Source of the DNA: Lachnospiraceae bacterium
GTDB taxonomy: Bacteria; Bacillota; Clostridia; Lachnospirales; Lachnospiraceae
Direction of reading: 5' to 3'
Length of the DNA: 64,000 bases
NCBI GenBank assembly: GCA_045130475.1
Contig: JBGUPU010000017.1
Location: 26,635-90,634, forward strand
Both the position numbers and the translations under genes were made by a program. Shown piece after piece: positions 9,352 to 27,455 of this stretch (position 1 is the stretch's first letter; the number at the start of each line of letters is the position of its first letter). The notes below the pieces were generated by a model that was given only the letters and a program-made list of their open reading frames with translations, was not told the origin of the DNA and ran no database searches.

Positions 9352-9387
9352 TTTATATCTCCTTCATTCTCAGAACATTCAATTACA

Positions 9388-9399
9388 GAACATCCGTTC
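9388..9399. promoter_or_regulatory. LexA (SOS/Cheo) box at the recA transcription start
   Basis: GAACATCCGTTC matches the Firmicute consensus GAAC-N4-GTTC and lies just downstream of the -10 element. Confidence 0.85.
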
Positions 9400-9407
9400 G
9401 CCTAATC

Positions 9408-9436
9408 AGTATAGCATTCCGTTTTCATCCCTGCAA
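9408..9436 (-). promoter_or_regulatory. Sigma-70 promoter for recA
   Basis: TTGCAG-17 bp-TATACT on the minus strand. Confidence 0.75.
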
Positions 9437-9666
9437 GTATTATTTTTGCGGGGTTTTCAAAAAGAAAAAGAGCCGCACGCAAAATCCATCGATCCCTGCG
9501 TCCGACTCCGTTCATCCTCTATCATCCGTCTGTTCTATATGTATACTTGCCTGTCCAGAATGGATTTAAGTATAATCCAAAGACCGGCTCCGGTCAACGG
9601 TCCTCCCGTCTTCTGCCGGCACCGTCCGGATCTCTCCCGGGGAATCTTTCAGATGCAGGCACCCCT

Positions 9667-10422
9667 TCAGGGATACTGGACATCCAGATCCTCGATCTTA
9701 CCGGCCGTGAGGCGCACTGCCTCCATGATCTGCTCCGAAGTAACATCTCCTTCGCCGGCCAGTTCCATGGGCGTCACCTTTCTGCCCAGCTCTTCAGCCA
9801 GCTCATGCGCCTTGTCCGCCACCAGGTTGACCATATCTTCGATCTGCCTGTCTACAGCGTGATCGTCCAGCATTTCAGAGATCAGGTCCTCCATGCTGTC
9901 CATGATCCTCCTGCCCAGCTCGCCCTCCACTTCATCGGGGCTCTCAAGATAGCCGAGAAGCCTGACACCCGTCACCAGTGCCTCGTTGCCGGCGCCGATC
10001 AGTTCCTCGATGCTGACACCCTGTCCCGAATACAGACGGGCTATATCCACAACTTTTGACAGCATCTGTTCGCTGAGTTCCTTCTGCGCTGACCTCTCAC
10101 CTGCCATGGCGGAGATTTTCAGCGCGTCCAGGACAGAGTCGGTCATCTCGGGCACGGAATCGAGGATTTCCATATAAGAACTGAGGAAATCCCTCTCCTT
10201 TTCGGGAAGTTCATCCACATCGCCGGGCCGGGTGCCCACAATGATCTTGTTGGCCTTCAGATAGTCCTCGATCTGGGCCAGCTGGCTTTCCTCCAGGGAA
10301 ATCGACGAAAAAATGTCAGCGATCTCATCCCTGGAAATCACGCCGCCGCTGCCCCGCGCCTGTTTCAGCGTTTTCTGAAGCAGGGCCATAAATTCCTGTT
10401 CTTTCTGAACGTTGTTCTCCAT
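9667..10422 (-). CDS. Truncated sigma-70-like protein (regions 1.1, partial 2, and 3; no region 4)
   Basis: ARLYSGQGVSIEELIGAGNEAL resembles region 2.1-2.2 and ELGRKVTPMELA resembles region 3. The protein ends there. Confidence 0.7.
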   Translation of the reverse strand: MENNVQKEQEFMALLQKTLKQARGSGGVISRDEIADIFSSISLEESQLAQIEDYLKANKIIVGTRPGDVDELPEKERDFLSSYMEILDSVPEMTDSVLDALKISAMAGERSAQKELSEQMLSKVVDIARLYSGQGVSIEELIGAGNEALVTGVRLLGYLESPDEVEGELGRRIMDSMEDLISEMLDDHAVDRQIEDMVNLVADKAHELAEELGRKVTPMELAGEGDVTSEQIMEAVRLTAGKIEDLDVQYP

Positions 10423-10434
10423 AAATCTTTGTCC

Positions 10435-11328
10435 TTACATCTTAAGCATATGAGGAGTCTCGCCCTTTTTCACATGCACATGTGAAAAAAGATGGTCCTG
10501 GCAGTATTCAAGCCCGCCTTCGCATTTGCTGCAATAGCGGAATTCCAGCGAGTCGCCGTCCTTTTCAGTGCGGCCGCAGATCGCGCAGCGGTGGATCGTA
10601 TCCGCTCCCCTTGCGCTCTTCTTTCCCTCGGCGACCGAACGGCGGAACTTCTGTCTGCGCCGGACCTGCCCCGGCGATAAACTCATCCAGCTGCGGGAAC
10701 GCATGTACAAAAGGACCACATTCAGCAGGGCGGCCGCGATCACAAAGCGCTCGGCGCTGTTGCCTCCGATCATGCTCATGATCAGGAAGCCGGCATCGAT
10801 CCAGCCCAGGTATTTGACCTTGATCGGAAGGACAAAAAACAGGTAGACCTGTGCCTCCGGGAATGTCAGTGCGAAAGCCAGGAAAATTGACATATTAATA
10901 TAGTAGGTGCTGAAATAGGATGCCCCGTACTTGCTCAGAGTCGCCAGCTCAATTCCCGACAGTCCGCTCATCCGAAGGAAAACAACCCACAGAACCGCGC
11001 CCAGGATCGTCAAAAAAATGCCCAGGAAAATATAGACATTATATTTATAATCTCCCCAGACCCGTTCCAGCGCAGTTCCGATACTGTAATAAAAATACAG
11101 CATAATGGCGACAAAGAAGATATTTCCTCCGCCCATCGGGGGTACCAGAAGCCAGGACAGAATACGCCAGAACTGGCCGTTCAGCAGAGCCGTCACATCC
11201 AGTACGAGAAGGGAAAAAATCTCAGGTCTCACAAAATACAGCACATAGCCGACCACATAGAGGGCCACGAGTTTCAGCGACAGATTGCTGACAGCATACC
11301 TGCCGAATTTTTTTTCAAAATTACTCAT
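10435..11328 (-). CDS. Rhomboid-superfamily/Derlin-like membrane protein with C-terminal Zn finger
   Basis: About 6 TM helices, YFYYSIGTALERVWG motif, C-terminal CAICG...CSKC...YCQDH. ATG 11328 follows GGAGGA. Confidence 0.6.
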   Translation of the reverse strand: MSNFEKKFGRYAVSNLSLKLVALYVVGYVLYFVRPEIFSLLVLDVTALLNGQFWRILSWLLVPPMGGGNIFFVAIMLYFYYSIGTALERVWGDYKYNVYIFLGIFLTILGAVLWVVFLRMSGLSGIELATLSKYGASYFSTYYINMSIFLAFALTFPEAQVYLFFVLPIKVKYLGWIDAGFLIMSMIGGNSAERFVIAAALLNVVLLYMRSRSWMSLSPGQVRRRQKFRRSVAEGKKSARGADTIHRCAICGRTEKDGDSLEFRYCSKCEGGLEYCQDHLFSHVHVKKGETPHMLKM

Positions 11329-11674
11329 CAAGTTTCCTCCGGAACTTATTGCCGGCGCCTTTATTCCGGCGCACTGTTTCATCAGCATTTTATCATCCGG
11401 CACTGCGATTGTAAATGCCGCTTATACCGGCACATATCGGGCGCATATCAGGCGGGAACCCGGGCTGATCCCATTGGGCCCTGAGCACCTCTGACAGGCA
11501 GGGATCCTCCCCTTTACAGGCTCCGCGGGCAGCTGTTTACAGTAACTCATCAACATTTGTGCCGTTCTGTCGTTTTCAGCATCGTTGATTTTTAATCCAT
11601 GTTCTATTATAATAATTAGTTCAGAAAATACTCTAAATGATGCTTCTTATACAGACCGAAAGGAGTTATCAACT

Positions 11675-14600
11675 TTGATAGCAAAAGATTATACACTCGG
11701 CATTGATATCGGATCCACAACAGTCAAGATCGCTATTCTGGATCCTTCCTATAAAATCATGTTTGCCGACTACCGCCGGCACCATGCCGATATTCAGGGC
11801 ACACTGCGCGCACTGGTGCAGGATGCCCACACACAGCTCGGAGACATCACGGTCCACCCGGTCATCACAGGTTCCGGAGGACTGACACTGGCGACACATC
11901 TTCAGGTCCCCTTTGTCCAGGAGGTCGTCTCGGTCTCCACTGCCCTTGAGAAGATCGCGCCCAAAACCGATGTAGCCATAGAGCTTGGAGGCGAGGACGC
12001 CAAGATCATCTATTTTGAAAACGGCAGTATCGAACAGAGAATGAACGGAATCTGCGCAGGCGGCACAGGCTCTTTCATCGATCAGATGGCAAGCCTTCTG
12101 CAGACCGACGCCGCAGGACTCAACCGCTACGCACGCGGCTATCGCTCTCTTTATACCATCGCTGCCCGCTGCGGTGTATTCGCCAAATCCGACATCCAGC
12201 CCCTGATCAATGAAGGCGCGACCAAGGAAGACCTGGCCGCCTCCATCTTCCAGGCGGTTGTAAATCAGACCATCAGCGGACTCGCCTGCGGAAAACCCAT
12301 CCGGGGACATGTCGCCTTCCTGGGCGGCCCTCTCCACTTCCTTCCGGAGCTGAAGGCGGCTTTTGTGCGGACCCTGAATCTGGACGACGAGCACACCATA
12401 GATGTGGAAAACTCCCATCTGTTCGCCGCCATGGGAAGCGCCATGAACGCCGATGAGGACAATTATGTCCTTCTTTCCGAAATGGCTCAGCGTCTTTCCG
12501 GAAAACTCCATATGGAGTTTGAGATCGGACGAATGGACCCCCTCTTCTCCTCACAGGAGGAGTATGATGCGTTCTGCCGCCGCCACGAGAAGGCACGCGT
12601 CCAGCGCGCGGATCTCTCCCAATACCGCGGAAACTGCTTCCTCGGTATCGATGCCGGCTCAACGACCACCAAACTGGCCCTGGTCGGTGAGGACGGCTCC
12701 CTTCTCTACTCATTTTACAGCAATAATAACGGCAGCCCTGTCAGGACTGCGATCTCTTCCATTGCGGAAATCCACCGCCTGCTCCCCCCGGAGGCGAAAA
12801 TCGTCCGAAGCTGTTCCACAGGCTATGGCGAAGCCCTGCTCAAAGCAGCTTTCCTTCTGGATGAGGGCGAAGTAGAGACCATTGCCCACTACTATGCGGC
12901 CGCCTTCTTTGATCCTGAAGTCGACTGCATTCTCGATATCGGCGGACAGGACATGAAGTGCATCCGTATCAAGAATCATGCCGTCGACAATGTCCTGCTC
13001 AATGAGGCATGTTCATCAGGATGCGGCTCCTTCATCGAGACCTTTGCCAAATCCCTCAACTTCTCAGTGCAGGATTTCGCAAAGGCAGCTCTTTTCGCAG
13101 AGCATCCCATCGACCTGGGAACCCGCTGTACCGTTTTTATGAATTCCCGCGTCAAACAGGCGCAGAAGGAAGGAGCGGATGTCTCTGACATCTCCGCCGG
13201 ACTCGCCTATTCTGTCATCAAAAACGCCCTCTTCAAGGTGATCAAGGTATCCGATGCCTCCCAGCTGGGCAAAAATATCGTCGTCCAGGGCGGCACCTTC
13301 TACAACGACGCCGTACTTCGCAGCGTTGAGACCATTTCCGGCGGGCAGGTCACACGTCCCGACATCGCCGGCATCATGGGTGCATTCGGCGCTGCCCTGA
13401 TCGCCCGCGAGCGCTATAACGGCAGACAGAACACGTCCATGCTTTCCTTCGATGAGATCGAAAATCTCCAGTTTGAGACGACACTCACGACCTGCGGACG
13501 CTGCACCAACAACTGCCGCCTGACCATCAACCACTTCCTGCGCGGTGAAAGCACTGACATGACGGACAACGCCTCTGTCTTTGAGGACACCGTTCCCGTC
13601 ACCGGCGAAGGTTCAGGCCGTAAAAAGGAAACCGGACTTGCAGCCCGTGCCCTTGAAACAGGCCGCGGCGTAGCGGACAGGGCAGCGAAAGCCATCGAGG
13701 AGAGCGCCATCGGCGGAGCTGCCGGGCGTGCGAGAAACTCTGCATTTGAAACCGCAGGCCGCGCCAAAGATTCCGCCCTCGAGACTGCCGGGCGCGCAGC
13801 GAAGGCAATTGAGGAGAGTGCCATCGGCGGAGCTGCCACCAGAGCGTTCGAAACGGCCGGAAAGGCAAAAGATTCTGCCATTGAGACAGCGGAGCGCGCC
13901 AGGGAGACTGCCCTTGAGACTGCAGAGCGCGCCAAAGGCACAGCTCTTGAGACTGCCGGACGTGCAGCGAAGGCTCTGGGCGTGGACTCATCTGACAACA
14001 GTGAAAAACACGTCGGAGAAGAGAAGAAGGGCAAAGAAGACAAAAAGTTCAGAGAAGACAGGAAATCCAGGGAAAGCAAAAGATCCCGTGACAGCAGGAA
14101 GGCGAAAGAATCCCCTGCTCCGGCACAGGAGCGCCTGTTTATCTCCGGAAACCGCTGTGAGCGAGGCCTCGGCAAAGAAGCGACGCAGAACAACATGCCC
14201 AATCTCTATAAATACAAACTGGGCAGGATTTTCGGCTACCGTCCTCTTTCTGCCAGTGAGGCAAGACGCGGAACAGTCGGTATCCCCCGCGTCCTGAACA
14301 TGTATGAAGACTACCCCTTCTGGGCGACCTTCTTTACAAAGCTGGGCTACCGCGTGGTCCTCTCCCCGCTCTCGACTCACAGGATCTACGAGATGGGAAT
14401 TGAGTCCATCCCCAGCGAGTCCGCGTGCTACCCCGCCAAGATTGCCCACGGGCATATCATGTGGCTCATCGAAAAGGGTGTGGATTTTATCTTCTATCCG
14501 TCCCTGTTCTATGAGCGCCCTGAGTTCGCCTCTTCGGACAACCACTACAACTGCCCGATCGTCACCTCCTATCCGGAAAACATCCGCAACAACGTCGAGG

Positions 14601-16723
14601 AGATCACGGAAGGCAAAGTAAAGTTCCGCAACCCCTTCATGGCCTTCACCAGCGTGCATACCATTACGGACGCAATGGAGAAGGAATTCGGGGATGAGAT
14701 CCCTGTCGAAGAGATCCGGTCCGCCTGTGCCGCAGGCTGGGCAGAGCTGGAACAATCCCGCAGGGATATTCAGAAAAAGGGTGAGGAAGTCCTCAAATTC
14801 ATGGAGGAAAACCATGTCAAGGGCATCGTCCTGGCAGGCCGTCCCTACCATATTGACCCGGAGATCAACCACGGCATTCCTGAGATGATCACTTCCTATG
14901 GCATTGCCGTCCTCTCCGAGGACTCCATCTCCCACCTGTCCACACCGGACCGGCCGATCACAGTCCTGGACCAGTGGATGTACCACTCCCGCCTGTACGC
15001 GGCAGCCAACTACGTGCGCCTGCGCGATGATCTGGAGATGATCCAGCTCAACTCCTTCGGCTGCGGAATTGACGCAGTCACGACAGACCAGGTCAACGAC
15101 ATCCTGGCAGGATCCGACAAGATCTACACCTGCCTGAAGATCGATGAAGTCAACAACCTGGGCAGCGCCCGCATCCGTGTGCGCTCCCTGATCGCCGCCA
15201 TCCGTATCCGCGATGAAAAGAACACCAAACGCAGCATCCGCTCCACGGCCATCAAGAAAGTGCCCTTCACAGTGGAGATGCGCAAAAATTATACGATCCT
15301 GTGCCCGCAGATGTCGCCGATCCATTTCGACCTCCTCGAACCGGCCGTGCGTGCCTGCGGATACAACCTCGTGATACTTCCCAACGACAACCGCCGGGCT
15401 GTCGATTTCGGCCTCAAGTATGTCAACAACGATGCCTGCTATCCTTCCCTCTTTGTCGTCGGACAGATCATGGAAGCGCTTGACTCCGGACAATATGATC
15501 TGGACAGGACTGCGGTCCTGATGACCCAGACCGGCGGCGGCTGCCGTGCCTCCAACTACGTCGGCTTTATCCGCCGCGCACTGACAAAGGCCGGCATGGG
15601 ACAGATTCCCGTTGTCTCAGTCAATATGTCCGGTCTTGAGGAAAATCCGGGCTTCAAGCTTGACCTCAAGCTCATTACCCGCGCAGCCTATGCTATTGTC
15701 TTCGGTGATGTCATGATGCGCTGCGTCTACCGCATGCGTCCCTATGAGCTCAAAAAGGGCAATGTCGAGGCCAAGCATAAGAAATGGGTGCAGATCTGCA
15801 CCGATTTCCTGACTAAGACAAACGGCCTGAACCTTCCCAAGGTCCAACGGCTTGCGGTTCAGATGATCCGCGATTTCGACGCGATCCCGATCCGCGAGGA
15901 GCGCAAGCCCCGCGTCGGCATCGTCGGCGAGATCCTGGTCAAATACGCCCCCGCGGCCAACAACTATCTCGTGGATCTCCTCGAGCAGGAGGGGGCGGAG
16001 GCCACTGTTCCCGACCTGATGGGCTTCATGCTCTACTGTTTCTACAACCAGGTCTACAAGGCGGAACATCTGGGTACAAGCAAAAAGACCGCGCAGAAGA
16101 GCACGCTCGGCATCCGTGCCATCGAAGCCGCTCTGAAGCCCATTTACAGGGCTTACGAAAAGAGTGTCCACTTCGAAGCTCCTGCCAGCATTTATGACCT
16201 GGTAAAATTTGCCGAGCCCATCGTTTCCATCGGAAACGAAACCGGTGAAGGATGGTTCCTCACCGGAGAGATGATCGAGCTGATCAACGACGGTGTTGAA
16301 AATATCGTCTGCATTCAGCCCTTCGGGTGCCTTCCCAACCACGTGGTCGGCAAGGGCGTCATCAAGGCGATCCGCAGGGAATACCCGCTGGCCAATATCG
16401 CGGCCATCGACTACGATCCCGGAGCCAGTGAAGTAAACCAGCTCAACCGTATCAAACTGATGCTGGCCACCGCCCAGAAGAATATGGAGAAAAAGAAGGC
16501 AGGTCTTATTTCCGGTACAGACGAATCTGCTGACTACAGAGAATCCGAACGTGTCGCAAATGAGACCGCCCCCGAGATTGACAGCGAGAACGCCTCGATC
16601 GGCTGCGTCCCTGATACTGATCCTGTCAGTACACAGGCGCAGGGCAATGCTTCCCAAAGCAGGAAGGCCTCCGGCGCGCACCGCAGACCTCGGGGACTGG
16701 CCGGACTTTTCCGCAGAAAATAA
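11675..16723 (+). CDS. 2-hydroxyacyl-CoA dehydratase activase-related multidomain protein (two BadF/BadG/BcrA/BcrD ATPase modules plus DUF2229-type region)
   Basis: Two GIDxGSTTxK motifs, ELGGEDAK/DIGGQDMK, NGICAGGTGSF/NEACSSGCGSF, QLNSFGCG and IQPFGCLPNH. TTG start 11675 after AAGGAG. Confidence 0.9.
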   Translation: MIAKDYTLGIDIGSTTVKIAILDPSYKIMFADYRRHHADIQGTLRALVQDAHTQLGDITVHPVITGSGGLTLATHLQVPFVQEVVSVSTALEKIAPKTDVAIELGGEDAKIIYFENGSIEQRMNGICAGGTGSFIDQMASLLQTDAAGLNRYARGYRSLYTIAARCGVFAKSDIQPLINEGATKEDLAASIFQAVVNQTISGLACGKPIRGHVAFLGGPLHFLPELKAAFVRTLNLDDEHTIDVENSHLFAAMGSAMNADEDNYVLLSEMAQRLSGKLHMEFEIGRMDPLFSSQEEYDAFCRRHEKARVQRADLSQYRGNCFLGIDAGSTTTKLALVGEDGSLLYSFYSNNNGSPVRTAISSIAEIHRLLPPEAKIVRSCSTGYGEALLKAAFLLDEGEVETIAHYYAAAFFDPEVDCILDIGGQDMKCIRIKNHAVDNVLLNEACSSGCGSFIETFAKSLNFSVQDFAKAALFAEHPIDLGTRCTVFMNSRVKQAQKEGADVSDISAGLAYSVIKNALFKVIKVSDASQLGKNIVVQGGTFYNDAVLRSVETISGGQVTRPDIAGIMGAFGAALIARERYNGRQNTSMLSFDEIENLQFETTLTTCGRCTNNCRLTINHFLRGESTDMTDNASVFEDTVPVTGEGSGRKKETGLAARALETGRGVADRAAKAIEESAIGGAAGRARNSAFETAGRAKDSALETAGRAAKAIEESAIGGAATRAFETAGKAKDSAIETAERARETALETAERAKGTALETAGRAAKALGVDSSDNSEKHVGEEKKGKEDKKFREDRKSRESKRSRDSRKAKESPAPAQERLFISGNRCERGLGKEATQNNMPNLYKYKLGRIFGYRPLSASEARRGTVGIPRVLNMYEDYPFWATFFTKLGYRVVLSPLSTHRIYEMGIESIPSESACYPAKIAHGHIMWLIEKGVDFIFYPSLFYERPEFASSDNHYNCPIVTSYPENIRNNVEEITEGKVKFRNPFMAFTSVHTITDAMEKEFGDEIPVEEIRSACAAGWAELEQSRRDIQKKGEEVLKFMEENHVKGIVLAGRPYHIDPEINHGIPEMITSYGIAVLSEDSISHLSTPDRPITVLDQWMYHSRLYAAANYVRLRDDLEMIQLNSFGCGIDAVTTDQVNDILAGSDKIYTCLKIDEVNNLGSARIRVRSLIAAIRIRDEKNTKRSIRSTAIKKVPFTVEMRKNYTILCPQMSPIHFDLLEPAVRACGYNLVILPNDNRRAVDFGLKYVNNDACYPSLFVVGQIMEALDSGQYDLDRTAVLMTQTGGGCRASNYVGFIRRALTKAGMGQIPVVSVNMSGLEENPGFKLDLKLITRAAYAIVFGDVMMRCVYRMRPYELKKGNVEAKHKKWVQICTDFLTKTNGLNLPKVQRLAVQMIRDFDAIPIREERKPRVGIVGEILVKYAPAANNYLVDLLEQEGAEATVPDLMGFMLYCFYNQVYKAEHLGTSKKTAQKSTLGIRAIEAALKPIYRAYEKSVHFEAPASIYDLVKFAEPIVSIGNETGEGWFLTGEMIELINDGVENIVCIQPFGCLPNHVVGKGVIKAIRREYPLANIAAIDYDPGASEVNQLNRIKLMLATAQKNMEKKKAGLISGTDESADYRESERVANETAPEIDSENASIGCVPDTDPVSTQAQGNASQSRKASGAHRRPRGLAGLFRRK
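13630..13980 (+). repeat. In-frame degenerate 33-bp (11-aa) tandem repeats inside the activase gene
   Basis: SAFETAGRAKD, SALETAGRAAK, RAFETAGKAKD, SAIETAERARE, TALETAERAKG, TALETAGRAAK, plus AIEESAIGGAA twice. Confidence 0.9.
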
Positions 16724-16766
16724 TCACCCTGCGTATCCAGGTAAAATGATAAAAAACCGATAACAC

Positions 16767-16808
16767 AAAAAGGGCACCGGCGCCAGTGATTGACGTCGAT
16801 GCCTTTTT
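16767..16808. terminator. Imperfect bidirectional terminator after the activase gene
   Basis: aaaaagggcaccggcgcc ... gacgtcgatgccttttt stem with A/T tails on both sides. Confidence 0.65.
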
Positions 16809-16878
16809 CATGTCAAAAATGTATTGCAATGCCTTGTCCCGAAAGTAAAGGGGGAGGATTCTGCGCATAAGGAATGAT

Positions 16879-17075
16879 CCATGCCGACAGGTTCGCGGGA
16901 GCGTTCGAGCGAGCTCGACGCGTCTCATTGTTGACTGTATCTCTCACGCAATTCGCCATGCCGACAGGTTCGCAGCCTTCGGCTGCTCACTGTCGCGGCA
17001 TTCGCCGTATACATCCAAATCAATAATTCGCCGCGTTCGAGCGAGCTCGACGCGTCTCATTATTGATTTGTATGT
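16879..17075. repeat. REP-like palindromic repeat mosaic
   Basis: 18-bp CCATGCCGACAGGTTCGC at 16879 and 16956; 29-bp GCGTTCGAGCGAGCTCGACGCGTCTCATT at 16901 and 17033; 17-bp inverted repeat at 17011-17027/17059-17075; GCAGCC-TTC-GGCTGC hairpin at 16972. Confidence 0.85.
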
Positions 17076-17094
17076 GCATGGCTCATTGCTTACG

Positions 17095-17855
17095 CGCAAA
17101 ATCAAGGAAGAGTATTCATCTGCCGTCTTTCCCAACGGTCTTACTGCGACGAACACTCTTCCTCAGAAAACACCATCCAATGGACTTATCCTCCTTTTTG
17201 TCTGGCTCTCCGCTCTCTTTCCTCTTCTTCTTTGTACTGATTGTACTGTGATGTCCGCATTCAGATCTACGCTGCACTCTCTGGTGCTTTCTCCGGATCG
17301 ATAGCCTGCTTTCCTGGATTCCGACTCCTTTCGAAACTTACCTCCCATCGTCCTTCCTCTACTATCTGATTGATGCGATGATCCGGAAGAGGACTGTTCC
17401 ATCCTGTTCCCCATCCTGCATCTTTCCGGTTTCCGATTTCAGATTTTGTCGGGTTTTTATTCGTCCGGTGAATCCACTCTTCAGAACTGTGATCTTTCAA
17501 AATATCCGATGCTGTGATTCATCACTTCTCTTTGGTGTACTCAATTGCGGAAAATATTCAATTGTAACTGGTTAATAGAGCTTTGATTAACTGCTTCCGG
17601 TGGCATTTACCTCCCTTTCTTCTTCTTTTTTTCCGCCTCGTGACTGCCTGTCGGGATGTTCGAAATATAATGGGAGAAACCGGCGGCTGTCTGCCTTCCT
17701 GATCTCATCCTGCGAAACTGCTCTTTGAAGCAGCTCCCGTGCGGAGAGTCCTTTGAGACTTTCCGTTGATACGAACTGTCTCCGCTGGTGTCTGTGCTTA
17801 TTTAAAAGAAGATTGATTGGTGAGCTTCTCGTCACCTTTTCTTGAAGTACTTTAT
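17095..17855 (-). ncRNA. Candidate large structured non-coding RNA (unassigned)
   Basis: Perfect promoter immediately upstream, no credible long ORF, several stems with minus-strand G-U pairs, and 34 GGA motifs. The 3' end is uncertain. Confidence 0.5.
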
Positions 17856-17861
17856 GTGATT

Positions 17862-17890
17862 ATTATACATAGCGTTCCCGTATTTGTCAA
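17862..17890 (-). promoter_or_regulatory. Perfect consensus sigma-70 promoter facing into the 17.85-17.1 kb ORF-less region
   Basis: TTGACA-aatacgggaacgctatg (17 bp)-TATAAT with an AT-rich upstream tract. Confidence 0.9.
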
Positions 17891-18018
17891 TCAATTAGGG
17901 TAAACAAAAGTAAATTATCGGATTATTCAGTAAATTATATACAATTCACTGCTTTGTTCCTGATTTGATACAATTCATCAGGCTGCAGAAAGAGGACATC
18001 CTGCCCTGCTTTTCCGTC

Positions 18019-18056
18019 AAAAAAAGCGGCACCGCTGTATGTAAGAGCAGTGCCGC
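18019..18056 (-). terminator. Intrinsic terminator of glyA
   Basis: gcggcac ... gtgccgc stem followed by a T-run on the minus strand. Confidence 0.75.
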
Positions 18057-18137
18057 ATATGTTCATCTTTTCAATTTTCCGGTTTTCTCAAACTTCCAAT
18101 TTGAGAGCCGCTGTCACAAAGAATGCCGGCCGTTTGA

Positions 18138-19376
18138 TCAGTCCAGAGGATACTTTGCAGTGATCTTCGCGATGATCGCCTTGGCGGGCTCGATGCCTGC
18201 CTCTTTGTTCTTGATGACAAGAGCGATCGCCTCGGCAACCTGGTCCATATCATCCTCTTTGAGACCGCGGGTTGTCGCTGCAGGAGAACCAAGACGGATA
18301 CCGCTGGTCACGAAAGGAGAACGCTGTTCATTGGGGATGGTATTCTTGTTGGCAGTGATGTGCGCTTCGTCAAGCCACTTCTCGACTTCCTTGCCCGTGA
18401 GATCCTGCTTTGTGAGGTCAACGAGCATCAGGTGGTTGTCAGTGCCGCCGGATACGATATCCACGCCCCTCTTCTTCAGGCCTTCGCAGAGTGCAGCTGC
18501 ATTGTTGATGACCTGCTGCTGATAAATCTTGAAGGAAGGATCCAGTGCCTCTTTGAAGCAGACAGCTTTGGCTGCGATGACATGCTCGAGAGGACCGCCC
18601 TGGGTGCCGGGGAAGACGCACTTGTTGAAGTTGTACTTCTTTGCAGTCTCTTCCATTGCAAGGATCATGCCGCCTCTGGGGCCGCGCAGGGTCTTGTGGG
18701 TCGTTGTGGTAACAACATCCGCATAAGGGAAGGGACTGGGATGAAGGCCTGCCACGACGAGGCCGGCGATGTGGGCAATGTCAGCCATCAGGACTGCGCC
18801 GCAGGCATCAGCTGCTTCACGGAATTTCTTGAAATCGATGGTCCTGCAGTAAGCGGAAGCACCGGCGATGATCATTTTGGGCTTTGCCTCGATCGCAATC
18901 CTTTTGAGCTCATCGTAATCAATGAATCCATTCTCATCTACGCCGTAAGGTACGATATTGTAATATGTACCGGAGATATTGGCCGCGCTGCCGTGAGTCA
19001 GATGTCCGCCCTGATTGAGGTTCATACCCATGAGGGTATCACCGGGCTTAAGAATGGCGAACTCGACCGCAAGGTTTGCGGAAGCACCGGAGTGGGGCTG
19101 CACGTTGGCATAAGTGCATCCGAAGAGCTCTTTTGCCCGCTCGATGGCAATAGTCTCGACAACATCGATCACCTGGCATCCGCCGTAATAGCGCTTGCCG
19201 GAATAACCTTCCGCGTATTTGTTGGTAAGAGGGCTTCCCATTGCAGCCATAACAGCCTTACTGGTCCAGTTCTCGGACGCGATCAGCTCGATATGGTCAT
19301 TCTGGCGCTCTACTTCCTGCTCAATCGCAGCGGCAATTTCGGGATCGATCTTTCTGACTTCCTCGATTGAATACAT
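18138..19376 (-). CDS. glyA: Serine hydroxymethyltransferase
   Basis: ELIASEN, NKYAEGY, GGHLTHG and [14 protein letters not shown] (PLP lysine) motifs. Confidence 0.99.
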
Positions 19377-19731
19377 CTAATTCTCCCTTCTGGTACATTT
19401 GTAAGATTTCTATAATAGGATTTTATCCATAATATGCTGTATTTTGGATTATTTCATACAGAAACAAAGTATAACAAGAAGAATCCGGTTTCGCAAGCGC
19501 CAAAGATTCATAATTTGTGCCCCAATTCCTGTTTATTTTAGAAGTTTTTACCAATCTTCTGCTCTCTCATGCTTCCCCGGCATTTTCTTTATGCCCCGCC
19601 TTATGTCCCGGCGGCATATTTGCGAAGCGATATTATGAATTATTTATAAACGTTTCAAAAAGTTGTTGCCAATTTTCCTCTGAAGTTGTAACATGCCTGT
19701 AACCATGAAGTGGCTTTTTTTGTTCATAAAA

Positions 19732-19768
19732 ATATCTGATGAGGTTGTATTTTATATCTGATGAGGTT
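19732..19768 (+). repeat. 15-bp direct repeat (22-bp period) upstream of the PAP2-like gene
   Basis: ATATCTGATGAGGTT at 19732 and 19754. Confidence 0.8.
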
Positions 19769-19775
19769 TTTTGTT

Positions 19776-20525
19776 ATGAATAAGAGAATAATCAGTTTGA
19801 TCGGAGGACGTTTTGCAGGGGCCTTCCCCCTCAACAAGCTCAGAACGCTTCGCCCCATGTTCTTTTATATGATTGCCTATCTGGTCTCCTTTGGCCTGAT
19901 CGAACAGTGGAACCGCCTGCATTATACCGTTATTCATACGGTCGTTGATGACTTCATTCCGTTTTCGCCGGTTTTTGTCATCCCCTATATACTCTGGTTT
20001 CCTTACGTGGCGGGCTTCGGGCTCTTCCTCCTGATGGCAAATGAGGAGGCATATCACAGGTTCTGTACGGTGCTTGTCATCGGAATGACTGTTTTTATCG
20101 CGGTATCCGTGGTCTTTCCGAACATCCATCTGCTCCGCCCGGAAACTATGCCGGAGAACAATGTGTTCACTCACATGATCTCCCTGCTCTATCTGGCAGA
20201 CACACCGACAAACCTGACGCCCAGCATCCACGTATTCAACAGCCTGGCCGTGGTCACCGCCGCCTGGCAGTGGGACTGGCGCACTGAGACCGGACACAGC
20301 TTTTCCAACATGGTACGCGGCTTCTGGCGCATGTTCCTCACAGTGCTCGGGATCCTGATCACACTCTCAACAATGCTGATCAAGCAGCACTCCTTCTCGG
20401 ATGTTGCGATCGCAGGCGCCCTGTTCCTGTTCACTTATATTCTGGTCTATCGTCTGGATTTTGTATTCATCGGCGGAAAACGAATTCGCCGTCCGGCCCT
20501 TCGTCCGAGATCGGCGCGTTCCTGA
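19776..20525 (+). CDS. PAP2-superfamily membrane phosphatase/phosphotransferase (AUR1/IPC synthase-like)
   Basis: DDFIPFSPVFVIPY, DTPTNLTPSIHV and KQHSFSDV motifs; about 6 TM helices. Confidence 0.75.
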   Translation: MNKRIISLIGGRFAGAFPLNKLRTLRPMFFYMIAYLVSFGLIEQWNRLHYTVIHTVVDDFIPFSPVFVIPYILWFPYVAGFGLFLLMANEEAYHRFCTVLVIGMTVFIAVSVVFPNIHLLRPETMPENNVFTHMISLLYLADTPTNLTPSIHVFNSLAVVTAAWQWDWRTETGHSFSNMVRGFWRMFLTVLGILITLSTMLIKQHSFSDVAIAGALFLFTYILVYRLDFVFIGGKRIRRPALRPRSARS

Positions 20526-20538
20526 TCGATCACAAAAG

Positions 20539-20575
20539 CACAAAAAAGGATTGCCTCGGCAATCCTTTTTTTGTG
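20539..20575. terminator. Bidirectional intrinsic terminator
   Basis: cacaaaaaaggattgcc ... ggcaatcctttttttgtg inverted repeat. Confidence 0.9.
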
Positions 20576-20627
20576 TCCAGATTTCTGATATTTCTGTCTA
20601 AAATGTCTCAGCCTTACTTTCTCCGCA

Positions 20628-22151
20628 TCACTCCTCAGGTCTCTCCTCAAGGATGATGTTCATGCGGGCTGTGTTCTTTTTGACGCTGTATTCGTCAGGC
20701 CATGTAATGGAAGCAACACCTGCGGAATAAGTTTCCTCCATGCCTCCGCCGCCGCTGTCAGCCGCCTGGCGGAGGATGACCCAGTCTGTCCCCTCAGAGA
20801 GCTGCTGGTTGATCAGCTCTGCGATCTTGGACTCGGGCAGGTCTGTCTGGAAAGAACCCTTCATGCTGTCAAGCAGGGCGCTTGCATTGACGATCAGGGC
20901 CGGCGATGTCACCTTCTCAATGATGGCCTTCAGTACGGCCTCCTGGTCCTTGCCTCGCTGGTTGTCGCCGTCGGGGAAGCTGTAGCGCTCACGGCAGAAA
21001 GCCAGCGCCTCCCGGCCGTTGAGGTGGTTCCAGCCCTTATCGATATGTACTTTTTTGTCTGTGAAGCAGTCAAAATCGTAATCGGACCAGACATCCACGC
21101 CGTCAATCGCGTCCACAATATCGATCAGTGTCGTGAAATTGACGCGCACATAATAGGAAATGTCGATATTATAGAGGTTCTCCAGCGTCCGGATGGAGGC
21201 ATCTTCGCCGTAGATACCGGCATGAGTCAGCTTGTCCCGCATTCCATAGGAGACGTCCGGGATCTCCACATAATAATCGCGGGGCGTCGTTGTCATCAGG
21301 ATCTTTTTTGTCTTGGGATTGATCGTTACGATAATGTTGACATCGCTGCGGCTTGCCTGTGAGATATCACCCTTGACATCGATACCGCTGATCAGAAGGT
21401 GGAAAGGTTCTCCCGGTTCGACCGACTCATATTCCATCTCTGTGCGGATCTCATAGTTTTCGAGAACGCGGACATTTTCTGTATAGGCGTCGATGACCTC
21501 CTCCAGCACAGAGCCGTAGGCCTCTCTGTAGACAGCGGCATCCACTTCCTTTCCCAGAAGACCGCGGGCGGCTTCAAGCGCGGAGCTGTAGGATTTGTAC
21601 TGGATCTCTTCCACGCTCTCCAGGCCGGTCTCCCTCCGGATGCTCTCCAGAAGCGTATCCTTTTCATCCTTGGTAAGATCGTCCACAATACCGTATTGAT
21701 AGCCTTCCGTATCAGCCATCTCCTGTGCCGGGTCATCGGCACGGACAACAATATCGAGATAATCTGTCTTCAAGGTACTCTCGGCGTCCTTGAGCAGATG
21801 CATGGTCCGATACAGATAATTGCTTCCGACCAGCTGCACTATGATCATCAGGGCGCTGATCACAATGGCGACGATCCTGGTCCGCTTGCTGCGGATACTG
21901 ACCAGGAAAACGACCAGCAGCACAACAGCCGAAAGGATCGCAAATGCGGCCATAATGTACTTCCAGGGAATCATTCCCGTTCCGTTGAGCAGATAAATAA
22001 ACAGTGCCGCAGTGACAGCCTCGACCAGAGAGAGCACTGCGCCGATTGCCCTGAGTCTCGTGATAGAGACAGCGTTTTTGGATTTCTTTCTATTCTGTGA
22101 TGATTTATGATCTTTCTGCATGCTGGAACTCTTTTTTGTGTTTGTTGACAT
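20628..22151 (-). CDS. LCP (LytR-CpsA-Psr) family wall glycopolymer ligase
   Basis: Three N-terminal TM helices; SRSDVNII, TTPRDYYV, DKLTHAG and RERYSFPDGDNQRGKDQ motifs. Confidence 0.92.
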   Translation of the reverse strand: MSTNTKKSSSMQKDHKSSQNRKKSKNAVSITRLRAIGAVLSLVEAVTAALFIYLLNGTGMIPWKYIMAAFAILSAVVLLVVFLVSIRSKRTRIVAIVISALMIIVQLVGSNYLYRTMHLLKDAESTLKTDYLDIVVRADDPAQEMADTEGYQYGIVDDLTKDEKDTLLESIRRETGLESVEEIQYKSYSSALEAARGLLGKEVDAAVYREAYGSVLEEVIDAYTENVRVLENYEIRTEMEYESVEPGEPFHLLISGIDVKGDISQASRSDVNIIVTINPKTKKILMTTTPRDYYVEIPDVSYGMRDKLTHAGIYGEDASIRTLENLYNIDISYYVRVNFTTLIDIVDAIDGVDVWSDYDFDCFTDKKVHIDKGWNHLNGREALAFCRERYSFPDGDNQRGKDQEAVLKAIIEKVTSPALIVNASALLDSMKGSFQTDLPESKIAELINQQLSEGTDWVILRQAADSGGGGMEETYSAGVASITWPDEYSVKKNTARMNIILEERPEE

Positions 22152-22198
22152 TTTCTGCTACCTTATTATCCCGGAAGAATGATCCGGGAAGATCTTTC

Positions 22199-22894
22199 CT
22201 AACTTTTAAAGCCGGATTGAACCGATGTGACCAGGAAAGTGCCGTTATCGCGGATCACCATACCTGTCAGCCGGTTTCCGTAGACACATCCCGTGTCCAG
22301 AGCTATCATACCCGTTTCGGGCAGTACTGTCCAGACGTCTTCCTGTATTTTCCCGTAATGACTTCCCAGAAAATAGAGCGGCATGCGATAGGGTGTGTGC
22401 CCTGTAAGCACGATTTTTCCCTCATAATCTGTCTGACGTCCCCAGATCAGGGTTTCGATCGTATTCGCCGCAGGATCGGGATCTGTCATAGAAGCATGGA
22501 CACAGTTAAATTTCTCTGCCGCATAGTAATACGGCATTTTCTCGTACCAGTCAATGAACTCCCGGATCCGGTGCTTATGATGGAGGAAGGAATAAACAGT
22601 CTTTTCACCGCTGTTATAATACCACAGGTCTTTGTCCCTTCCGCCGTTATAAAGGGCATCGATCATCATCTGCTCATGGTTGCCCCGGATCAGGACGCAG
22701 CGGTCTCCCATTCTCTCCTTCAAGTCCCGCAGAAAAACGAAGGTCTCATAAATTTTAGGCCCTCTGTCAATCGTATCGCCCAGATTGACCAGTGTGTCAT
22801 TTTTTTCATCGAAGGCCATTTTCTGCAGGAGTTCTCTGCATTCATCATAGCAGCCATGTATATCTGTAATGACAATTGTCCTGCTGTCTCCCAC
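22199..22894 (-). CDS. Calcineurin-like metallophosphoesterase (Ser/Thr protein phosphatase-like)
   Basis: DIHG, GDTIDRG, GNHE, GHTP and DTGCVYG motifs. Confidence 0.9.
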   Translation of the reverse strand: MGDSRTIVITDIHGCYDECRELLQKMAFDEKNDTLVNLGDTIDRGPKIYETFVFLRDLKERMGDRCVLIRGNHEQMMIDALYNGGRDKDLWYYNSGEKTVYSFLHHKHRIREFIDWYEKMPYYYAAEKFNCVHASMTDPDPAANTIETLIWGRQTDYEGKIVLTGHTPYRMPLYFLGSHYGKIQEDVWTVLPETGMIALDTGCVYGNRLTGMVIRDNGTFLVTSVQSGFKS

Positions 22895-22963
22895 TGCCTT
22901 CTCCTTTCAAAGTCTTGTACTGCAGACCGTCGGGAGAACCCCTCCCCCGGGAACGGCCGGCTT

Positions 22964-23326
22964 TTATGTTCTGAAAAAGGGATCCTGCGTCTCCCCGTAT
23001 TCCTCATCCGCCCCGGCCTCTTCAGGCTCATCGGGCTCCCCGCCGGCAAAAACAAAGCTGCTGCCGGGCAGTTCCTTCTCCGCATCTGAGAGAACTGTAC
23101 GGAATCTGTCAAAATATACCGGATCCCCCTCCTGCAGTTCCTCCCATGCGGTAAAGCAGATGTGCAGGGGAGCGAAACCGTCTGTCAGTACATCATAGAG
23201 GGCATCCAGATTTCTGCCGTACCAGGAAGGAAGCCCCAGTGTCTTCTCCAGGCGGCGGTGAAGCGCTGTCCGGTCACTGACGCCGGACAGATCCGCTGTA
23301 TGATAATGCATTTCTTTATCCATCAT
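22964..23326 (-). CDS. Barstar-family ribonuclease inhibitor
   Basis: LGLPSWYGRNLDALYDVLT motif; ATGA overlap with the upstream RNase gene. Confidence 0.92.
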   Translation of the reverse strand: MMDKEMHYHTADLSGVSDRTALHRRLEKTLGLPSWYGRNLDALYDVLTDGFAPLHICFTAWEELQEGDPVYFDRFRTVLSDAEKELPGSSFVFAGGEPDEPEEAGADEEYGETQDPFFRT

Positions 23327-23976
23327 TTGCTCCCGTAAAGAAGTGTAAAGGTCTCATAATGGTCCTTCGTATAGTAGATCCGGCCGTCATCGGAGTAGAT
23401 GATCCTCTCCGGCCCCCTGCGTCTGGCTCCGAGAGTATTTATGTCACATTCGTGATAATTGCCGTCGGGCAGGATACCCTCATAGTTTCCGAAGCGGTCG
23501 CCGCCAATGCACATGCCGGGGACATAATCCTCCAGGGAGCCGCCGGACCATCCTTTCTGTCTCGCTTCCTTCTTTGTCATAAAATTATTCGGAAGTCTGC
23601 CGTAGGTATGAATATACAGGGCAACGTCATCTTTGGTCGTGTAGACACCGTTGACGTCAATCTGCCCGCCTTCGGAAAGCTGATCTTCTTTTTCGTAGGA
23701 CTGGTCCTCAGATCCGTCGTCATCCCCGCCTCCATAGTCGGACTCGGGGTCATAGGAATCCCCGTTTTCATCCGCGAGGGAGTCCTGCTGATCATCAAAG
23801 CCGCCCTCCGCCGGATTATCGGCGGCAGCTTCTACTTTCTGCAGTTCCTGTTCCTTATTCTTCTGCGCGCTGTCCGCCGCAGCGGCGGATTTTCCGCAGC
23901 CTCCTGCCGCTGCCAGCAGCAGGCAGAGAAGGGGGATCAGAAACCATCTTTTCCAGTTCTTGCATCGGTTTTTCAT
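23323..23976 (-). CDS. Barnase-like guanyl-specific RNase, lipoprotein
   Basis: Lipobox LAAAGGC, acidic linker, then LPNNFMTKKEA, GGDRFGNYEG, YHECDIN, RGPERIIYS and TKDHYETF (catalytic K/E/R/R/H equivalents present). Confidence 0.92.
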   Translation of the reverse strand: MKNRCKNWKRWFLIPLLCLLLAAAGGCGKSAAAADSAQKNKEQELQKVEAAADNPAEGGFDDQQDSLADENGDSYDPESDYGGGDDDGSEDQSYEKEDQLSEGGQIDVNGVYTTKDDVALYIHTYGRLPNNFMTKKEARQKGWSGGSLEDYVPGMCIGGDRFGNYEGILPDGNYHECDINTLGARRRGPERIIYSDDGRIYYTKDHYETFTLLYGSK

Positions 23977-24043
23977 ATCTGCTTGCTTTCTCCTTTTCCG
24001 GGTTCACCCGCTGCAGAAGGCCTTTCACAGGGGTCTTGTTTGT

Positions 24044-26767
24044 TTATTCTTTTCTGCTGCGGGGTGTGATCCTTCCATGTGCCTGAAGGACAGGCGTCAG
24101 GATCCTGATCACCTTTTCCGTCTCGATCGGTTTTGCGATAAAAGCATCCATACCCGCTTCCAGGCATTTGCGCATATCCTCTTCGAACACGTTGGCGGTC
24201 ATTGCCACGATCGGGATGCCGGCATGATCCAGATCCTGCATGCTCCTGATCCTGGAAGTAGCCTCATAGCCGTCCATGACAGGCATCTGTACATCCATCA
24301 GAATGGCATCATAATATCCCTTCTGCGAGATGGCAACCATACGGACCGCCTCGCGTCCGTTAACGGCACTTTCAACCGTAAAGCCGGCCTCCTCCAGAAG
24401 TTCACAGGCGATCTCCATATTGAGTTCATTGTCTTCGACCACCAGGATTCTCTTGCCATGGGGATCAAGCTCCACAAAGAGCTCGCCTGAAGAATAATCT
24501 CTTTCCTTTTCCGCATCAGAGCCGCTTTCAGTCTCCGACTGGTCAGATCGTACAGATTCGTTCGGTCCGGAATCGTTCTGCCTGTTGTCCAGTGCTTCTC
24601 TGCGTCCTCTGGATCTGTTCTCCACAATGATCCGGTCTTCTGCGCTGTCTTCCTCAACAGCATCCCATTCCTGCAGCCGCAGAGAAATATGGATGATCAC
24701 TTCCGTGCCGACACCCTGCTCAGTATTGACATCGATGGTGCCGCCCATGGTCTCCACGATTCCCTTGCAGATGGCCATTCCGAGGCCGTTGCCGGGCACT
24801 TTGCTGAGTGTGGAGCTGTACTCTCTTTCAAAGGGCTCAAAGATATGGCTTACAAACTCATCACTCATGCCGATGCCGTTGTCCCGGACACAGATCCGCA
24901 GGGCGGCATAGCCCTTGGGCGCAGGCTCTTCTTCCTCAATCTCCAGCGAGATCCTGCCGCCGACGCCGGTAAATTTTACAGCGTTGTTCAGGAGGTTCAG
25001 GAGAAGCTGGCGCATGACCAACGGGTCGTAATGATACTTCATCCCGCTTCCGCTGCCCATAACGACAGAAATGTCCTGATTCTTGTCTCTGATCTGCGGC
25101 AGCAGAGCGTCCTGTACATAGTTGACAGTGTCTTCGAGTGAGCAGTCGATCTCATGGAGCTCCATACGGCCGCTCTCGATCCGGCTCATATCCAGTATAT
25201 TGTTGATCAGCTCCAGCAGATGGTCTCCGGAATCCAGAATCTTTTCAAGGCAGTCCTCCACCCGCTCTTTCTCATCCAGATGTTTGAGGGCAATCCGCGT
25301 AAATCCCAGGATCGCGTTCATGGGCGTCCTTATATCATGAGACATGTTGGTCAGGAACAGGCTCTTTGCCCGGTCTGCGTTCCTCGCCCTCTCCAGAGCG
25401 TTTTCCAGAAGGCGTCTCTGCTGCTGTTCCATGCGGCGTTCATCCTCAATACAGGCAAAACCGATGACCACCTCGCGCAATGGCTCTTTTCTGCTTCCGA
25501 CCCGGACAAGCTTTGCCCTGTAATACTGGGGTCCCCGTGACCTTCCGGCACGGAATGTGAAGGAAAACAGGTCCTTCCCCTCCAGATTTCTGCGGAGTGT
25601 ATCAGCCTCCAGAAAATATTGGAACTTGCTCCCGTCCTGTTCGTAGACAGCCTTCTCCGAAAACAATTGTACAGACTCACTGAAGGAAGGCGCAAAACAA
25701 TCTGCATAAGTGGACATAATATGCTCATTGCGGCGGTAAACCTCATAGGTATCTGTATCCAGACTCAGGAAGAAGACAGTCGAATAGTCGATGGACAGGG
25801 CTGCGATCATATTCATGCGCCGCCGGTTTTCTATCTCGACAGACTTCTGCTCCGTGATATCCCGCATGAAAACCAGTCCTGTAACATCTCCGGAATTTTC
25901 ATCCTTTGTCAGCAGAATTGTCTCGCGGATGTAAACAGACCTGTTCAGTTTGTCCTTGACCTGGTAAGTGAGGACCACCTTATCGTTGCCCCTTCTGAAA
26001 GTTTCCAGAAGTGATTCACGGTTGACTGTGCGGGCATGGATTTCCCGATCCTTCTCGTCTACCACGCGCAGATTCCAGTTCTCTGACAGGATATTAAAGG
26101 GACCGGGCAGATCGACTCCGGGCACGTAATAAAAGAGATCCGGATTATCCAGTTCCGAGGCATAAATGATATTCTTTGTAATATTGAACTCAAAGACACC
26201 CGCCGCGTCTTCCAGCATGGCTCCTTTATATCTTTTTTCCTGTTCAAGACGACGGCGCAGCACATCCAGACTGTTTTCGATTTCTTCAGTAAAAGGTCCT
26301 TTATGGGGTATCGCGAAAGAAGTGCCGGAAGAGCTGCGGTCAGGTCCGGGTTTCGCCATCAGGACCCGCACCGGCTCACCGTCTTTTTCTTCCAGCAGAC
26401 GCACCTCGACCTTCATCCAGTTGTCCATACCGCGTCGCGGAAAGACAAAGCTGAAGCTTTCCTGCATCTTGAGCATATTCCGAATGTTCTCACGGCTGCC
26501 GGCCACTTCGCGCCAGGGAGTAAAAGCCGGCTCCGGAAGAAGGCGGCTGTTCAGTTTGTTAAAAACAGAGTACTTGTCCGTCTGTCGGATGATTTCTGTG
26601 AGAACAGGGTCTTCCTCCCTCTCGAACAGCAGCTCATAGCTGTCCTTTTCAAGATCCACGATAAAAGCCCTGATATAATCAGATAAAAATGAATGCAGGA
26701 GCAATTCCTTCGGAACAGAAAGATTCAGCCTGCCTGTGTACTTTTCTTTTCTGCTTTCTTTCTGCAT
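24044..26767 (-). CDS. Hybrid sensor histidine kinase/response regulator, cytoplasmic with PAS-like input region
   Basis: H-box [12 protein letters not shown]-box [11 protein letters not shown]-boxes DNGIGM and GNGLGM, receiver LMDVQMP. ATG 26767 follows GGAGGA. Confidence 0.93.
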
Positions 26768-27421: not shown

Positions 27422-27455
27422 AGCAGAAAAGCATAAGCTCCTGCGTCTTTTACGT

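Follow-up and report, generated by a model that had tools for sequence, protein, structure and literature searches.

A probable stand-alone gene for a large structured non-coding RNA of no described family in uncultured rumen Lachnospiraceae

What is transcribed from the DNA that follows glyA in a ruminant-gut Lachnospiraceae bacterium, where a consensus promoter points into some 750 nucleotides (nt) without a credible protein gene? We addressed this question for a 64,000-nt stretch of contig JBGUPU010000017.1 (assembly GCA_045130475.1, positions 26,635 to 90,634 of the forward strand), referred to here as the window and numbered from its first letter. A first-pass annotation made from the sequence alone had proposed that the minus strand of this region encodes an abundant, stand-alone structured RNA, and all of its checks that were run came out in favour of that overall reading. 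The locus has a promoter and a terminator of its own, is present as a single chromosomal copy, yields an abundant transcript, and is conserved among relatives, with covariation in the predicted stems and no conserved open reading frame (ORF). It is, to our minds, almost certainly the source of a real, independent structured non-coding RNA (ncRNA). The fuller reading, that it is a stand-alone gene for a large, stable, structured ncRNA of no described family and likely the core of a ribonucleoprotein (RNP) or of an RNA assembly, we consider probable.

Promoter, terminator and expression

On the minus strand, a sigma-70/SigA-type promoter occupies positions 17890 to 17862, with TTGACA (17890–17885) and TATAAT (17867–17862) separated by a 17-nt spacer. 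As the first-pass annotation had stated, the match is exact and is preceded by an A/T-rich tract: the site scores 12/12 in a promoter scan, is the sole exact TTGACA-17-TATAAT in the window, and has no counterpart in 100 dinucleotide-preserving shuffles (0 sites). The same promoter is letter-perfect in all of the fetched homologous loci whose sequence reaches it (27/27). It belongs to the strength class used for stable RNAs, and the RNA downstream accumulates to stable-RNA levels. The A/T-rich element upstream of the promoter (AATTGTA...TGACTGAATAWTCCGATAAT, 17946–17891, minus strand) is itself conserved and marks the point at which cross-species homology begins, no alignment between species being possible for the DNA upstream of 17946; it may serve as an UP element or as a site for a regulator. 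At the other end, homology stops at an intrinsic terminator (17164–17097, minus strand), which consists of a 17-bp stem (17164–17148/17120–17104) around a 5-bp hairpin (17138–17123), followed by a U-rich tail. The homologous span, from 17946 to ~17094, comprises the upstream element, the promoter, the RNA and the terminator.

The genes on either side are separate from this unit. The glyA ORF (19376–18138, minus strand) is followed by its own hairpin (18056–18026) and a run of seven T (18025–18019), that is, by a terminator exactly where one had been placed before (18019–18056). The downstream neighbour is, again as annotated earlier, convergent, an ORF of 1712 amino acids (aa) with BcrAD_BadFG ATPase/DUF2229 matches (11585–16723, plus strand). 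Because no gene follows on the strand of the RNA in any locus with flanks, the RNA is not a cis-regulatory leader.

Window DNA was found in both metagenomes and metatranscriptomes of cattle and sheep, and the host is a ruminant-gut bacterium. The depth of DNA metagenomes over the RNA gene equals that of its flanks (e.g. 15.3 vs 15.3–16.1 in run X1); the gene is therefore single-copy chromosomal DNA. Yet, in at least eight RNA runs from several studies, the same segment stands 10^3–10^4-fold above its flanks, with the proviso that these runs are assembled unstranded contigs, in which contig word depth is only a rough measure of expression. Thus, run X19 holds a 631-nt contig (17198–17828) at depth 61, compared to ~1 for glyA, and the pooled word depth in runs X29 and X30 is 10^4–2 × 10^5 across 17140–17843 and ~0 on either side. 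When 20 kb (8001–28000) were binned in these two runs at ≥95% identity, the two bins of the RNA reached 8 × 10^3–2.8 × 10^4, vs ≤ ~1 for all other bins. Across rumen and sheep-gut metatranscriptomes, word depth over the RNA is 10^3–10^5, with contigs that span 17845–17157; contigs exactly matching the window have a depth of 4,750–6,660, vs ≤ ~2 for glyA. The RNA is also present without its flanks in two runs labelled as other organisms (X40 and X41), a further sign of abundance.

The RNA contigs begin between 17843 and 17855 and, apart from the one that reaches 17855, none lies over 17848–18137 or below ~17134. The high-depth contigs end at 17843–17845, and it is a single contig of low depth that extends to 17855. 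Libraries of this type usually lose the first ~10 nt of a transcript, and a transcription start at ~A17855, seven bases past the −10 box and near the position that had been predicted, fits the contig ends. On the 3' side, RNA depth past the terminator is ≤ ~25, vs 10^4–10^5 in the body of the transcript. In random-primed libraries, the depth declines from ~17200 and stops at 17157–17134, with adapter junctions at those points; two chimeric contigs joined to poly(A), both from a rumen metatranscriptome rich in eukaryotes, span 17842/17844 to 17112 and 17102. The loss of coverage could reflect 3' trimming to a mature end at ~17200. However, because the poly(A)-joined contigs include the hairpin, an edge effect, i.e. 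termination at the hairpin combined with poor random priming inside the 22-bp hairpin, is at least as likely. Taken together, the contig limits agree with the promoter and with the terminator, as in an independent transcription unit, and delimit a primary transcript of ~755 nt (17855–17100, minus strand) that is purine-rich (A 35%, G 26.5%).

Conservation and covariation of the predicted fold

An exact-pattern scan of species-representative genomes retrieved six metagenome-assembled genomes of uncultured rumen Lachnospiraceae/Eubacteriales, and a scan of metagenomes added 13 further contigs that carry the RNA; a scan of viral contigs with the exact pattern gave no match. The route through GlyA homologues was saturated (the best 120 matches were all ≥93% identical, and four look-ups added one lineage). 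A profile built from pseudo-proteins antisense to the RNA matched 26 clusters of 'hypothetical proteins' (P0121–P0146), and all seven contigs fetched from these matches (7/7) carry the RNA, including three new lineages at 73–78% identity. In total, the unit was found in 27 other fetched loci, representing ~14 sequence lineages at 73–93% identity, all of them from uncultured ruminant-gut Lachnospiraceae, so that the homologues which had been called for do exist and, as detailed below, show compensatory changes. Searches with nhmmer returned one copy per RNA-bearing locus, with no paralogues in the window or in the loci. Wherever a locus includes flanks, the unit is bordered by glyA on one side and by the convergent BcrAD/DUF2229 gene on the other. 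The identity of the RNA between lineages (78–93%) is similar to the nucleotide identity of glyA (83–92%), whereas the true intergenic spacers have no detectable similarity between lineages and are not alignable.

The family extends beyond these sequences. In several runs, RNA contigs of high depth connect 17570 with 17659/17707 and 17254/17258 with 17353/17358, skipping segments of 88–137 nt. Relatives without 17571–17658/17707 or 17255–17357 are therefore expressed in the same samples, and the family is wider than the 17 sequences that could be aligned; these contigs point to more distant, differently built relatives.

RNAalifold was run on 12 sequences (A1) and on 17 sequences (A3). In the larger alignment, 97.8% of the cells form standard pairs, and 35 pairs (91 cells) changed on both sides, compared to 15.6 ± 2.5 pairs (25.5 ± 4.3 cells) in column shuffles, none of which reached the observed values (0/500). 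When the 3' partners were slid by 1–3 columns, only 9–13 pairs changed on both sides. The structure statistics of the 12-sequence set agree with those of the larger one, and the best-supported helices have 10, 7, 3, 3, 3 and 3 covarying pairs. Compensatory changes thus exceed both the shuffled and the slid controls, as in a structured ncRNA, although the structure was derived from the same alignment, which favours the observed fold in both comparisons; the z-score for folding of the single sequence is modest (−2.3). The pattern of substitutions indicates that the fold is maintained by selection.

The predicted fold starts with a 5'-proximal hairpin (GGUGAC-GAGAA-GCUCACC, 17836–17819, minus strand, as are all elements of the fold), which is invariant in 16 sequences except for a single position in the loop and gives no covariation information. 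The 5' domain (17811–17622) is closed by CUUCUU (17811–17806) and AAGAAG (17627–17622), with three covarying pairs in the closing helix, and contains the hairpins 17765–17742 (seven covarying pairs) and 17737–17714 (two covarying pairs), as well as a variable hairpin at ~17700–17680 that retains its stem despite unrelated sequence between lineages. Of four helices that the first-pass annotation had proposed, two are confirmed, one is no more than compatible and one is contradicted. The hairpin 17737–17714, AGCUGCUU-CAAA-GAGCAGUU, is among the confirmed ones and includes the hairpin drawn there at 17735–17716. The same annotation had paired GCGGAGA with UCUCCGC close by; this stem is contradicted by the alignment, where 84.5% of its cells pair and the divergent sequences break it, and the pairing of CGGAAAGUCU with GGACUCUCCG in the hairpin 17765–17742 is supported in its place.

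The core domain (17551–17209) is closed by UCCGC (17551–17547) with GCGGA (17213–17209) and by a long helix (17525–17504/17266–17248); both closing helices are invariant and hence without covariation support. In the interior, compensatory change is concentrated in the helix 17494–17482/17308–17296 (10 covarying pairs), the helix 17474–17471/17320–17317 (three) and the hairpin 17426–17368 (six). A 15-bp long-range helix suggested earlier for this region is compatible only in part: its 9-bp portion, UUCCGGAUC with GAUCCGGAG, pairs in 12 of the 12 sequences, with wobble changes but none that are compensatory, whereas the GAUAGU/GCUAUC portion pairs poorly, and the helix as a whole competes with the covarying helices. 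The most conserved block of the RNA, CAGUUACAAUUGAAUAUUUUCCGCAAUUGAGUACA..GAGAAGUGAUGAAUCACAGCAUCGGAUAUUUUGAA (17570–17496), has long invariant runs in both alignments and coincides with the peak of pooled RNA depth (~1.9 × 10^5), with almost no variants. The 3' tail hairpin (17206–17172), which includes the Shine-Dalgarno (SD)-like sequence AAAGGAGGA (17197–17189), is invariant in 17 sequences. The terminator stem, whose core had been recognised before as a 12-bp stem (17162–17151/17117–17106), is confirmed: all cells of the larger alignment pair, with one compensatory pair and G-U/A-U exchanges.

The choice of strand agrees with the direction of these elements. The asymmetry of G-U over A-C mismatches that had been pointed out for individual stems holds globally, with 235 G-U cells vs 19 A-C cells on the minus-strand reading, and the alifold energy is −303 for the minus strand vs −269 for the opposite one. 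The promoter, the terminator and the position of poly(A) at the 3' side of the chimeric contigs (L010 and L015) also indicate the minus strand. The strand and the exact ends given here are those that we infer.

Known RNA families and alternative readings

None of the 4227 models of Rfam 15, which presumably include OLE, ROOL, GOLLD, raiA, HEARO, 6S, RNase P, transfer-messenger RNA (tmRNA), signal recognition particle (SRP) RNA and T-box, matched 17100–17855 at the gathering threshold. In E-value mode, the best matches on the RNA had E ≥ 1.4 and belonged to unrelated eukaryotic or archaeal families, and among 14 homologous loci no family reached the threshold or E ≤ 1 on the RNA. ARAGORN identified no tRNA or tmRNA in 16500–18200. 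These results agree with the earlier statement that the RNA lacks the hallmarks of tmRNA, RNase P, SRP, tRNA and T-box, and the search against Rfam that it had recommended is blank for the RNA both in the window and in the 14 loci. A C/D-box/k-turn reading of GUGAUGA...CUGA (a weak sR2 match, E = 1.4) was rejected, given that CUGA lacks conservation and no pairing forms between the flanks. Origin from a plasmid or phage was also rejected, as collections of plasmids, phages and viral contigs contain no match to the RNA. Full-text literature searches by topic and by sequence strings found no description of it, with the caveat that papers outside the searched collection are possible.

Bacterial ncRNAs of more than ~500 nt whose structure is elaborate and conserved are rare, and those that are understood are ribozymes, RNP cores or, recently, RNA-only cages. 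What is new here is an RNA family without a detectable relative, large orphan ncRNAs being already known as a phenomenon. Among the described families, OLE is a stand-alone structured ncRNA of ~600 nt from Firmicutes, with many invariant nucleotides and a patchy phylogenetic range; it ranks with the most abundant transcripts and functions as an RNP (PMC3413148; PMC12286853). The RNA described here is likewise large, stand-alone, structured and abundant, with many invariant nucleotides; however, it has no Rfam match, its sequence and helix layout are unrelated to those of OLE, its host is a mesophilic rumen clade, and, by the Pfam labels of the called genes (glyA, a PAP2-like membrane protein and the BcrAD/DUF2229 ORF), no gene for an OLE-associated protein (oapA and others) lies beside it. 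ROOL, first found in rumen metagenomes, and GOLLD are large, ornate and highly expressed, and form RNA-only homo-oligomeric cages (PMC12286853; PMC5737381). Our RNA resembles them in size, in high expression and in its rumen origin, but it matches neither covariance model, shows no association with phages or tRNAs, and sits at a fixed chromosomal position. With 6S RNA, RNase P RNA, tmRNA and SRP RNA it shares a strong consensus promoter, a very high level and high sequence conservation, whereas it has no Rfam or ARAGORN match, is 2–4 times longer than 6S or SRP RNA, is apparently limited to one clade, and includes no tag ORF. Our best guess is that the RNA is alike in kind to OLE, ROOL and GOLLD without being a member of those families.

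How, then, might such an RNA act? The housekeeping sigma factor would start transcription at ~17855 from the consensus promoter and the intrinsic terminator would end it at ~17100; the ~755-nt product is predicted to fold into the 5' hairpin, the 5' domain, the core domain with its long-range closing helices, the 3' tail hairpin and the terminator hairpin, and accumulates to the levels of a stable RNA. Its mode of action is a step that we infer: the folded shape, together with long invariant unpaired blocks, would mediate it, either as the core of an RNP or within an RNA-only assembly. Such invariant runs are found in predicted loops and junctions (e.g. CAUCACAGUACAAUCAGUACA, GAAUAAAAACCCGACA and UCGGAAACCGGAAA), a pattern typical of RNAs with specific protein partners or tertiary interactions. 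A profile of this kind is shared by RNAs whose function depends on shape and contact (RNase P, SRP and OLE) and by RNA-only assemblies (ROOL and GOLLD) (PMC12286853; PMC3413148). Because the profile is like that of RNase P, SRP, OLE, ROOL and GOLLD, and unlike that of seed RNAs or motif sponges, we prefer the reading as a scaffold or core; by this analogy, and provided that the RNA is real, we would put the chance of it at even or marginally better. The invariant self-complementary motifs of the RNA (CAAUUG twice, GUAC twice, and AGAUCU) could in principle mediate self-association. A bolder idea is that the locus represents a novel class of large bacterial RNAs with a distinct biochemical function, be it that of a ribozyme, of the RNA core in an unknown RNP machine or of a self-assembling particle. 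It would then have distant, differently built relatives in other rumen bacteria and a place among the most abundant non-ribosomal transcripts of a dominant clade. This we regard as conceivable but rather unlikely.

In our view, the role of the RNA is not that of an mRNA, leader, antisense transcript or simple sponge. The main rival is a sponge of the CsrB/RsmZ type, in which many repeated GGA motifs would let the RNA sequester CsrA or another GGA-binding regulator, with the abundance of the RNA setting the level of free regulator. The motif counts speak for such a role: the RNA contains 34 GGA, compared to 21.7 ± 3.0 in dinucleotide shuffles (0/1000), and four occurrences of CAGGA[UAC]G, which we take to be the CsrB repeat consensus, against 0.42 expected, with three invariant copies of CAGGAUG. 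At 17400, at 17191 and, for most of the sequences, at 17132, GGA is also exposed in a predicted apical loop. However, most GGA are in predicted stems, several of which covary, and apical loops contain only ~3 of them, compared to roughly 18 or more in CsrB; the RNA consists of several folded domains rather than of GGA-loop hairpins in series, its conservation covers long non-repetitive blocks beyond short motifs, and its purine-rich composition inflates GGA counts. We know of no CsrB/RsmZ-type sponge from Firmicutes. We hold a sponge to be improbable. Somewhat less probable again is a trans-acting base-pairing RNA or RNA sponge, whose conserved single-stranded blocks would pair with mRNAs, small RNAs (sRNAs) or, via SD-like sites, the 3' end of 16S rRNA. 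The invariant unpaired blocks and three SD-like sites (AAAGGAGGA, GGNAGGUA and GAGGUAAGUUUC) would suit it, but in most species two of these sites deviate from a perfect match (GGUAGG, GGAAGG), pairing with GCCACC is predicted for one, and base-pairing RNAs usually keep only short seeds rather than ~750 nt.

A protein-coding role was considered in two forms. The ORFs in 17100–17855 are only mechanical ones, without a Pfam match and without conservation in frame across homologues, in keeping with the absence of a credible protein gene noted before, and none combines in-frame conservation with mostly synonymous change as expected of an mRNA for a protein or small protein. Stop-free stretches differ between species, and 1-nt indels occur inside otherwise invariant blocks, so that identical conserved stretches would fall into different reading frames. 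A decayed or frameshifted protein gene was rejected for lack of both a Pfam match and a conserved frame. There remains an mRNA or dual-function RNA that would yield a micro-peptide from a 5-codon ORF or from ORFs of 11–21 aa, or in which translation of the mini-ORF would modulate the terminator. The 5-codon ORF (UUG GAU GGU GUU NNC stop, 17180–17163, minus strand) begins 9–10 nt past the invariant AAAGGAGGA, a perfect SD, and its stop is UGA, UAA or UAG in 7, 8 and 2 of the 17 sequences, respectively, and never UGG. However, the purines of the stop also contribute two R-U pairs to the foot of the terminator stem, and this pairing explains the pattern equally well; moreover, there is no downstream gene for an attenuator to control. 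The frames of MVFSEEECSSQ, MNHSIGYFERSQF and MQDGEQDG... are open in 11–12 of the 12 sequences, but their changes are mostly non-synonymous, at first and second codon positions, and one of them lacks a start codon in L013. The 21-aa ORF that follows GGGAGG (17606–17541) was rejected: four lineages have ACG in place of its ATG, and more distant relatives carry a deletion of the region. Finally, 5–20 codons would not require ~700 nt of covarying structure. We accordingly rate this possibility as low, a shade below that of base pairing. As an observation in its own right, the SD-like AAAGGAGGA and the mini-ORF overlapping the base of the terminator stem resemble a leader peptide/attenuator, without a downstream gene.

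The possibility that there is no functional RNA gene at all, but a transcribed pseudogene or mobile-element remnant, or an artefact of DNA contamination or assembly, appears to us extremely slight. A repeat-like Clostridiales-1 element adjoins the unit, and contig depth reflects expression only poorly. On the other side, conservation of the RNA equals that of glyA amid scrambled spacers, stems show compensatory changes, 27 loci retain the promoter, the translations have no match to a protein family, and a gene that is single-copy in DNA stands 10^3–10^4-fold above its flanks in at least eight RNA runs.

Several points weigh against the scaffold or core reading or limit the confidence that can be placed in it. 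All sequences are from one clade (glyA is ≥83% identical in nucleotides); the outcome of the shuffle tests is therefore inflated by shared ancestry, and invariance leaves many helices without covariation information. The RNA evidence comes from unstranded assembled contigs with depth as a rough measure, and the 3' end is not pinned, as the coverage fading from 17200 could be 3' trimming rather than priming bias. The neighbours are uninformative on function, and the synteny may merely reflect close kinship. The enriched GGA and CAGGA[UAC]G motifs leave room for a sponge role, and the invariant SD-like sequence with a mini-ORF whose stop is conserved leaves some room for translation.

The combination of covariation and extreme expression in one large RNA makes its role directly testable. 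The clade is uncultured but very common in the ruminant gut, so that the RNA may matter for rumen physiology and could serve as an activity marker of its clade; the range observed to date is narrow, however, and a cultured host is lacking, which limits the interest.

Adjoining elements and practical consequences

A Clostridiales-1 (RF01699)-like element lies at 16955–17082 (minus strand), ~20 nt past the terminator, with 34.7 bits against a threshold of 48, and is partially duplicated at 16879–16934. A copy above the threshold (58.1 bits) occupies the same position in L028 (4929–5115, plus strand), and further copies are found in L030 (1–159, minus strand) and in L017 (869–1019, minus strand), the L017 copy being on the opposite strand and at the opposite side of the RNA. 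Most homologous loci do not contain the element, and its depth in DNA metagenomes is 4–18 times that of the flanks. Given the varying position and strand and the high DNA depth, it behaves like a multi-copy mobile repeat and not like a fixed sRNA gene. It is a separate element of ~130–190 nt in the same intergenic region and not part of the conserved RNA.

The RNA takes up a large share of the non-rRNA reads in rumen metatranscriptomes, and it has left traces in public data. The pyrimidine-rich plus strand of 17100–17860 has long stop-free frames that gene callers annotate; at least 26 public clusters of 'hypothetical proteins' (75–258 aa) are therefore artefacts of the RNA gene. In rumen metatranscriptome contigs, the RNA is also fused via A-runs to AT-rich eukaryote-like mRNA (L010, 730–1150; L015, 742–1873). 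Given these fusions and its presence in runs labelled as other organisms, the RNA is often carried along in poly(A)-selected libraries and in those of other organisms. Antisense 'hypothetical proteins' and contaminated RNA-seq libraries from rumen material are thus practical consequences.

Three further observations concern the surroundings of the locus. The BcrAD_BadFG/DUF2229 ORF contains a long, repetitive insert rich in Ala, Glu and Arg (ETAGRAK... units, with a faint LEA_4 match). A few genes upstream of glyA, a barnase-like ribonuclease (PF00545) adjoins a barstar (PF01337) (312–1324 in L001, corresponding to ~22964–23976 of the window, minus strand). The only Rfam match above the gathering threshold in the window is a TPP riboswitch (RF00059) at 46032–46136 (plus strand, 61.1 bits).

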